The notes under the pieces: generated by a model
What the model was told of the DNA's origin: nothing
Databases searched by the model: none
What the model saw: only the letters and a program-made list of their open reading frames with translations
Program-made: the position numbers and the translations under genes
Shown here: positions 12,147-12,459 of the stretch, piece by piece
Layout: each line of letters begins with the position of its first letter
Position numbering within the stretch: the first letter of the stretch is position 1
IMG/VR virus record: IMGVR_UViG_2850796239_000005
Coordinates: 1-26,342 of that record
DNA from: a virus
Taxonomy: Duplodnaviria > Heunggongvirae > Uroviricota > Caudoviricetes
Length of the DNA: 26,342 bases
Direction: 5' to 3' (one strand)

Positions 12147-12170
12147 CCGGCACCAAGGCCGGGTTTTGTT
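12147..12170. terminator. Candidate bidirectional intrinsic terminator between hicB and cI
   Basis: CCGGC-ACCAAG-GCCGG stem-loop with a plus-strand TTTTGTT tail and an upstream A-run (T-run on the minus strand). Confidence 0.45.
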
Positions 12171-12459
12171 ATTGGTGCATTTGGCAGGTTGTAATATCTG
12201 GTCCATAAGCCAAAGTAAAAACAGGCTTGTTGATCAAGCCCATGTTCTTTAATGATTGAATCATTTTTCCTTGCTCGCTAACTTTTTGCTTGCTAAGTAT
12301 TTCTTCCACTTGTTGTGTCAAGGATTTGTCTTTGTTCATTTATGGCTCACTTGATTGCGACTGCTCCCGCCCGCATTGGGCGAGGGTTCTCGGAGATTTT
12401 TCGCTGAAAAAGGAAATAAAATAGCCTCCCTGCAAGGTTATTGATATCATCCTGTGAGT

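Follow-up and report, generated by a model that had tools for sequence, protein, structure and literature searches.

Gene Arrangement Downstream of cI

The DNA analyzed here is the IMG/VR virus record IMGVR_UViG_2850796239_000005 (Caudoviricetes), a stretch of 26,342 nt that is hereafter called the window, and the subject of this study is a minus-strand open reading frame (ORF) of 56 codons that lies behind its cI-like repressor gene. This ORF is a genuine protein-coding gene, its relatives are operon partners of an SDH-type serine protease, and in the window the protease gene has been deleted and the small gene left as an orphan. The ORF starts with an ATG at 12339-12337 and is translated as MNKDKSLTQQVEEILSKQKVSEQGKMIQSLKNMGLINKPVFTLAYGPDITTCQMHQ, with a conserved core running from G34 to P47 (G34-L-I-N-K-P-V-F-T-L-A-Y-G-P47). 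The first-pass annotation, which was made from the letters of the window alone, had given the coordinates and translation of this 56-codon frame exactly. It had also rightly placed the ORF at the position of lambda rexA/rexB, that is, downstream of cI, on the same strand and before a bidirectional terminator. A terminator-like hairpin does indeed begin 7 bases past the ORF stop, where it serves as the end of both the cI-ORF transcript and the convergent transcript of hicAB, and its stem is one G shorter in the window than in relatives. The ribosome-binding site was described as weak, and this holds as well, with GTGA, 7 nt 5' of the ATG, as the sole Shine-Dalgarno-like element. The weakness is explained by ancestry, because the ancestral ATG abuts the TAA of the upstream gene, a stop codon that is kept at 12342-12340.

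The cI stop and the ATG of the small gene are separated by 121 nt, the two genes lie on the same strand, and neither a promoter-like nor a terminator-like site was found in the spacer. Transcription through the small gene is presumed to start at a promoter-like site upstream of cI, to judge from its match to the consensus, and the orphan gene is probably still co-transcribed with cI.

The Open Reading Frame Is a Protein-Coding Gene

Related loci fall into two allele groups that differ at 13 of 168 positions of the ORF, of which 6 are synonymous and 7 non-synonymous. The resulting proportions of synonymous and non-synonymous differences (pS = 0.19, pN = 0.05) give a pN/pS of about 0.27, and in the adjacent protease gene of the same loci the values are pS = 0.25 and pN = 0.013, with a ratio of about 0.045. 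The pS of the ORF is not different from that of the protease gene (p = 0.51), while its pN is about five-fold below the neutral rate of the protease gene (p = 1e-6); synonymous and non-synonymous changes within the ORF differ at p = 0.019. The annotated frame is the sole open frame of the six and has the lowest pN/pS among them. No non-synonymous change separates the two groups in residues 34-48, and the variable positions of the protein cluster at 2, 12, 33, 49, and 51. The core from G34 to A44 is invariant between the two main Escherichia coli alleles, minor alleles carry I36N and V40I, and one allele has a clean in-frame deletion of 15 nt (5 codons). The first-pass annotation had doubted that the ORF is a gene and had pointed to a comparison of synonymous with non-synonymous changes in related prophages; that comparison dispels the doubt, as the frame is conserved in relatives with the pN/pS given above and a pS equal to that of the neighboring gene.

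A different explanation would be that the frame arose by chance in the 3' untranslated region of cI, or that what is conserved is an RNA or terminator. The weak ribosome-binding site would fit this, as would an RNA fold z-score of -2.6 for the region, the lack of any Rfam or Pfam family over the ORF, and a terminator-like 9-bp hairpin with a T-run inside it (12243-12221, minus strand), which covers the codons of G-L-I-N-K-P-V-F. This hairpin is broken in the other allele by a synonymous GGC-to-GGA change, which argues against constraint at the RNA level, and the RNA-structure reading was rejected on the grounds that the hairpin is not conserved. It is probably incidental, and it could attenuate transcription in the window allele. 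A chance frame is further contradicted by the low pN/pS at a pS that reaches the neighbor's neutral level, and by conservation of the protein, from 91% to about 20% identity across phyla, at a constant operon position. We therefore regard the non-coding explanation as extremely improbable and effectively already refuted.

A Protease Gene Precedes the Small Gene in Intact Cassettes

Public databases already list the identical protein, which occurs in E. coli and Shigella, under the label "hypothetical protein"; it was seen on at least 1000 contigs, with 1192 blocks in the index. Among the 5426 complete E. coli genomes searched, 20 contain the ORF, and PGAP/RefSeq gives it the same label in every one of them. 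Contrary to the earlier remark that no family could be recognized, it matches phrog_28875 of PHROGs v4 at E = 1e-30 (residues 1-53 against profile positions 1-53 of 56), and the family described below comprises 472 clusters at 50% identity. Its membership of phrog_28875, and its correspondence to WP_164834428.1, WP_167580584.1, and WP_219392559.1, are direct at the sequence level, but these entries record no function, no link to a protease and no wider family. The PHROG is matched only weakly by the Klebsiella, Pectobacterium, and Bacteroidota homologues (E = 2e-8 to 8e-3).

Searches with the single small protein reached little further. Scans of Pfam and NCBIfam gave no significant family for the 56-aa protein, and the only matches, all sub-threshold, were to the N-terminus of ArgR: PF01316 at 16.6 bits against a cut-off of 27 (profile positions 4-33 of 70, E = 0.0066) and NCBIfam ArgR at 17.2 against a cut-off of 194 (E = 0.0028). 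Homology with ArgR was rejected, as these matches are absent in eight other family members. A word-indexed protein search with the single sequence found only 3 near-identical clusters, a scan of genome contigs with the single protein found nothing, tblastn against 50,697 phage records gave no match, and an Rfam scan of the whole window showed nothing overlapping the ORF. The protease has only two remote matches in the phage records. The family was revealed only by way of the neighboring protease gene.

The ATG of the small gene directly abuts the TAA stop (TAA-ATG) of a gene for a protease of 300 aa in 17 of these 20 genomes, and the same arrangement was present in all 16 sampled contigs with the alleles P0005 and P0017. 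An intact cassette of this kind lies at NZ_AP027404.1 2113151-2114224, and WP_021518647.1 is an accession of the protease. RefSeq names this protein "SDH family Clp fold serine proteinase"; it matches PF01972 above the cut-off (E = 1.6e-10) and also phrog_11747, where no function is assigned. The order in intact cassettes is cI, sometimes a gene for a 53-aa membrane anchor, then the protease gene, the small gene and the terminator, followed either by OL/PL-N as in lambda or by hicBA. The pair of protease and small gene stands behind at least five different cI types in the rexAB slot, and it is therefore a mobile cassette. When the Klebsiella cassette was used as a query for a second SDH family in the complete E. 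coli genomes, only the same 17 genomes were found.

A Family of Protease Partners Across Phyla

The association extends well beyond E. coli. Behind proteases of 89% (Kluyvera), 71% (Pectobacterium), and 68% (Klebsiella aerogenes) identity there is in each case a homologous small ORF, and one such homologue behind a related protease reads MTRVQAKPMHEKVAELKQVSVSRNQKQMIENLKDLGLLNAPQFTLAYGPTAQVYQPR. A scan of one genome per species with an alignment of the protease gave 80 loci, which span Proteobacteria, Bacteroidota, Acidobacteriota, Planctomycetota, Gemmatimonadota, and others. An iterated hidden Markov model then located a homologous ORF of 55-82 aa in 55 of 86 loci, always on the strand of the protease and never elsewhere; these ORFs start between -29 and +35 nt from the protease stop, with one outlier (L069) at +127. 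Of the 31 remaining loci, 24 proved on inspection to carry the motif as well and 3 to carry part of it, so that the partner ORF is present in at least 79 of the 86 loci. The small family is the obligate downstream partner, within one operon, of a single clade of SDH-type ClpP-fold Ser-Lys proteases.

An alignment of 31 diverse members shows a shared core, consisting of an amphipathic helix followed by G-[LIV]-[LIV]-x-x-P-x-[YF]-x-[LF]-[PA], which outside the enterics extends as x-h-D-T-I-G-[KR]. The window protein carries the core motif as G34-L-I-N-K-P-V-F-T-L-A44. A profile search of 1.84 billion representative proteins retrieved 472 clusters at E ≤ 1e-3, of which 213 at E ≤ 1e-10; with few exceptions these are standalone proteins 57-99 aa long, and the window protein was recovered among them. 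Pfam holds no family over eight diverse members that were scanned.

No third gene is conserved beside the pair. The 83 nearest flanking ORFs fall into 96 Pfam families, among which HTH_3 recurs four times and Peptidase_S24 twice, and about 10 of the 83 match PADLOC models (type III and type II methyltransferases, SngC, BrxH, dGTPase, mad2/3, DrmD, DpdJ, PDC-S04, and PDC-S11). One Blastocatellia locus adjoins a type IIG methyltransferase and a PLD/SNF2 helicase, and another locus adjoins PemK, a Macro domain protein, a D12 methyltransferase, and an HNH protein. These surroundings suggest that the pair is an accessory module which stands on its own and frequently occurs in defense or mobile contexts.

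In three metagenomic proteins (P0275, P0308, and P0325), the N-terminal 60-100 residues of an SDH-type protease are joined in frame to the whole of a small partner (coordinates L123 92-511 and L124 47-556). The body of the protease is lost in these fusions and the partner is kept, in parallel with the orphaning in the window described below. P0275 and P0308 were traced to single short metagenomic contigs, and the fusions were set aside as evidence.

Deletion of the Protease in the Window

The PF01972 protease that elsewhere stands next to the small gene is absent from the window, where only its last ~13 nt and an insertion sequence (IS) scar remain (Table 1). Homology to the intact cassettes ends about 34 nt past the cI stop and restarts 13-16 nt before the ATG, at AAGTGAG[C/T]CATAA-ATG; the retained remnant carries both the TAA stop and the GTGA element mentioned above. 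Between these points, ~1.3 kb holding the gene for the 53-aa transmembrane protein and the 300-aa SDH protease gene are replaced by ~77 nt in the window. The 44-nt scar within the replacement matches the terminal left end of an element, which lies beside tnpA/tnpB in E. coli TUM9803 and beside tnpB in the plasmid pMTY1586_IncY. From the break in homology together with the IS200/IS605 scar, we conclude that an event associated with the IS removed the ~1.3 kb. By descent the window copy thus belongs to the family, in a context that is derived and orphaned.

The orphan arrangement is common, being indexed in 1192 blocks as against 1451 for the intact cassette. At 10 of 10 sampled places the spacer measures the same 121 nt, and the cI genes in front are of two types. 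The orphan loci in CP026836.1 and CP027027.1 are 99.4-99.6% identical to the window, and E. coli strain 48 (NZ_CP166879.1, 3502348-3502518) also has the orphan arrangement. All 12 sampled orphan ORFs are intact, with 2 variable sites in 171 nt, both synonymous, and the flanks of these 12 copies have 6 substitution sites in 240 nt. The diversity of the flanks is no higher than that of the ORF, so the orphan data cannot separate selection from recency.

An orphan copy and an intact cassette occur together in one E. coli genome (JAOWPJ010000010.1, GCA_026135565.1), in two related prophages (L012 and L020), the orphan with the M33 allele and the intact cassette with the R33 allele. In the strain UCPROB-002 (NZ_CM142927.1, L003 3110-4013), the SDH protease is split into pieces of 177 aa and 108 aa and the downstream small gene is intact, which is another case of the protease decaying before the small gene.

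Table 1. Features of the cI-small gene region of the window.
Feature	Position	Strand	Remarks
Bidirectional intrinsic-terminator-like hairpin	12162-12147	both	G+C stem, T-runs on both strands
56-aa small-protein gene	12169..12339	-	Stop codon included; phrog_28875 member, SDH-type protease partner family
Retained ~13-nt 3' end of the deleted SDH-protease gene, AAGTGAGCCATAA	12340..12352	-	Alignments with intact cassettes
cI-to-ORF spacer	12353..12459	-	Replaces ~1.3 kb; first ~34 nt common to the intact type
IS200/IS605-family left-end scar	12366..12409	-	~44-nt match to element end
cI-like repressor gene	12460..13177	-	LexA-family, HTH + Peptidase_S24; presumed first gene of the transcript
Promoter-like site TTGATA-17-TAAAAT	13189..13217	-	pRM position upstream of cI; consensus match only

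Predicted Structure of the Small Protein and Features of the Protease

The small protein is predicted to be a cytoplasmic protein of ~6 kDa, with an N-terminal hairpin of two helices and an extended, conserved C-terminal tail. AlphaFold2 monomer models have an overall predicted local distance difference test score (pLDDT) of ~70 and a predicted template modeling score (pTM) of 0.33-0.43. With the deeper alignment, helices were placed at residues 7-17 and 22-32 and the tail had a pLDDT of 54-58 (pTM 0.33), whereas with a shallow alignment the topology was helix-helix-beta-hairpin, a hairpin that was not reproduced with the deeper alignment. The tail is the best conserved part of the protein and yet appears disordered alone, as would be expected of a segment that folds on a partner. 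A Foldseek search of the models against the PDB gave no match at E ≤ 0.001. The only hits of the profile against PDB sequences were designed PPR repeats over 13 residues, which were judged a coincidence of helix-cap motifs and discarded.

S102 and K145 of the protease are invariant across 22 diverse homologues, and the protease is likely active and dedicated to a substrate. Its nearest solved relative is the NfeD protease 1510-N/PH1510 of Pyrococcus horikoshii (E = 6e-5). PH1510, a Ser-Lys protease with a ClpP fold, cuts a stomatin from its own operon in the hydrophobic C-terminal segment. The C-terminal half of the SDH-type protease has further invariant residues between 191 and 240 (W191, K196-F197, W200, and a W-H-S-H-x-R motif at 235-240), which fall outside the ClpP/NfeD-like region matching known structures. 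This half of the protein may be a second functional site or a docking domain for the partner.

Neighboring Genes and Other Elements of the Window

The only indels that distinguish the window from its closest relatives (99.4-99.6% identical) over 1.9 kb are three 1-nt contractions of G-runs, located at ~13045 in cI, ~12369 in the spacer, and ~12149 in the stem of the terminator. The contraction at ~13045, from G5 to G4, shifts the frame of the window cI and splits it into pieces of 51 aa and 188 aa, and an identical split is found in CP026846.1 (L015). The contractions look like homopolymer sequencing errors, and they could also be real decay of a cryptic prophage.

A hicA/hicB toxin-antitoxin pair (11460-12055, plus strand) converges on the small ORF and shares the bidirectional terminator with it. 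Upstream of this pair there is a perfect sigma-70 consensus, TTGACA-17-TATAAT, at 11402-11430 (plus strand), and in this prophage lineage hicAB occurs with both the orphan and the intact SDH cassette.

Further away, a C4 antisense RNA (Rfam, 78.6 bits; 10613-10700, minus strand) and an isrK Hfq-binding RNA (61.6 bits; 10725-10801, minus strand) lie next to each other and either overlap a 178-aa ORF at 10181-10717 or are situated just upstream of it; relatives annotate that region as AntA/AntB or Rha antirepressor. This region looks like a c4-ant immunity module of the P1/P7 style inside a lambdoid prophage. An ALIL pseudoknot, a frameshift element of the IS3 family, was detected at 5330-5446 (plus strand, 115.7 bits), and sRNA-Xcc1 at 1881-1964 (minus strand, 78.1 bits). 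The presence of insertion sequences elsewhere in the window is consistent with an IS-rich, Shigella-like degraded prophage.

Discussion

The small protein and phrog_28875 were already catalogued. The cassette occupies the same slot as lambda rexA/rexB and HK022 nun, downstream of cI, on the same strand and before the immunity terminator, and it presumably shares their logic of expression in the lysogen. It has no sequence relationship to RexAB, however, as neither PADLOC (E ≤ 1) nor Pfam gave a match, and the components differ too, with RexA and the membrane protein RexB on one side and a ClpP-fold protease with a soluble protein of 56 aa on the other. The best functional analogy for a protease with a dedicated partner is PH1510 and the stomatin PH1511, which is not meant as a claim of membership. 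That relationship is very distant and covers only the ~100 N-terminal residues of the protease; the partner here is a soluble protein of 56-80 aa and not a stomatin, and the protease is without a membrane domain, unlike the PH1510 system.

The intact cassette may be the DefenseFinder system FS_HP_SDH_sah, a name confirmed to exist in the literature; the two are likened by their composition. A pair of "hypothetical protein + SDH_sah" encoded by a phage-inducible chromosomal island (PICI) was reportedly described as anti-phage by Fillol-Salom and co-workers in 2022. The likeness would consist in a protease of PF01972, formerly named SDH_sah, and a hypothetical protein, encoded by two genes on an enterobacterial mobile element. 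The carrier of FS_HP_SDH_sah is a PICI, whereas here it is a lambdoid cI operon, and the defining protease is absent from the window while present in its intact relatives.

Considering the above results, we propose a model for the cassette and its remnant. In lysogens, the repressor promoter would drive transcription of the pair, and the small protein may bind the protease through its tail (G-L-I-x-K-P-x-Y/F-x-L-P/A) and serve it as a dedicated substrate or as an inhibitor or regulator. By analogy with the other occupants of the slot, the pair is probably anti-phage, and it may act as a lysogen-expressed exclusion or abortive-infection module. The IS200/IS605-associated deletion removed the protease gene together with the upstream gene for the 53-aa protein, and the orphan in the window would be inert without its partner; an orphan copy of this kind most likely has no remaining activity. 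Taken jointly, the parts of this model (a genuine gene, a protease partner, a cassette in the cI slot, binding and defense, an IS-associated deletion, and a probably inert orphan) form the reading that we favor, and we hold it with moderate confidence. Several points weigh against it. PADLOC v2 matched neither the small protein nor the protease (E ≤ 1), and nothing informative was found in the literature on SDH_sah/PF01972 proteases with phage or PICI; the Tai paper makes no mention of SDH. The link to defense islands is impressionistic, as some of the PADLOC models are generic and many of the neighbors are housekeeping genes. The commonness and intactness of the orphan could, moreover, mean that it has a function of its own.

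The main competing explanation takes up this last point. In it, the pair would be toxin-antitoxin-like, with a toxic protease that the small protein neutralizes, and the orphan would be kept as anti-addiction or immunity against incoming cassettes. The sizes of the genes and their tight translational coupling do resemble two-gene toxin/immunity modules, and the orphan is intact in 12 of 12 copies, nearly rivals the intact cassette in indexed blocks (1192 vs. 1451), stands behind two cI types and coexists with an intact cassette in one genome (L012, L020). The three metagenomic fusions, in which a decayed protease N-terminus is joined to an intact small protein, would also fit, but they come from single short contigs, and the orphans vary too little for selection to be demonstrated. 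The gene order, with the protease gene first, is not the usual one of type II systems, and the product of the small gene is without the DNA-binding domain typical of antitoxins, given that the ArgR-like match is sub-threshold and not family-wide; no antitoxin family in Pfam or PADLOC was matched by it. We consider this explanation unlikely. A bolder version, in which the pair is an immune or addiction module across phyla, the small protein is an inhibitor or a sensor-substrate acting through its Y-x-L-P tail, and the more than 1000 orphans of E. coli and Shigella are active neutralizers, seems to us quite unlikely.

The small protein might instead be an independent regulator, a minimal winged-helix-like binder of DNA or RNA with its own function downstream of cI. 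This idea draws on the weak matches to the N-terminus of ArgR (Pfam E = 0.0066, NCBIfam E = 0.0028), on similarly weak matches of two other members to the winged-helix families MCM_C and PF0610-like_N, and on the helix-helix-beta-hairpin topology of the first AlphaFold2 model. All of these matches are far under the curated cut-offs and lie in different registers, though, and the similarity to ArgR amounts to two helices without the recognition helix. The hairpin is gone in the model from the deeper alignment, and nothing turned up with Foldseek or among the PDB sequences. That the small gene is so strictly tied to the protease, with at least 79 of 86 loci across phyla showing the pair, speaks for a function exercised jointly, and a regulator acting independently is in our judgment very unlikely.

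For the window itself, the annotation should list the ORF as a gene, namely as what is left of a two-gene cassette after the loss of its effector. The findings also suggest that, where gene callers apply a minimum length of 60 aa or more, one functionally linked part of the system is overlooked. A clade of ClpP-fold Ser-Lys proteases nearly always has a tiny partner that is without a name or a Pfam family, and in E. coli this pair of protease and mini-protein occupies the classic rexAB exclusion slot. The conserved tail of the small protein plainly lends itself to mutagenesis. The pair thus offers a concrete test case for how a protease of the self-compartmentalizing type may be controlled by, or may act on, a dedicated mini-protein in the conflict between phage and host.
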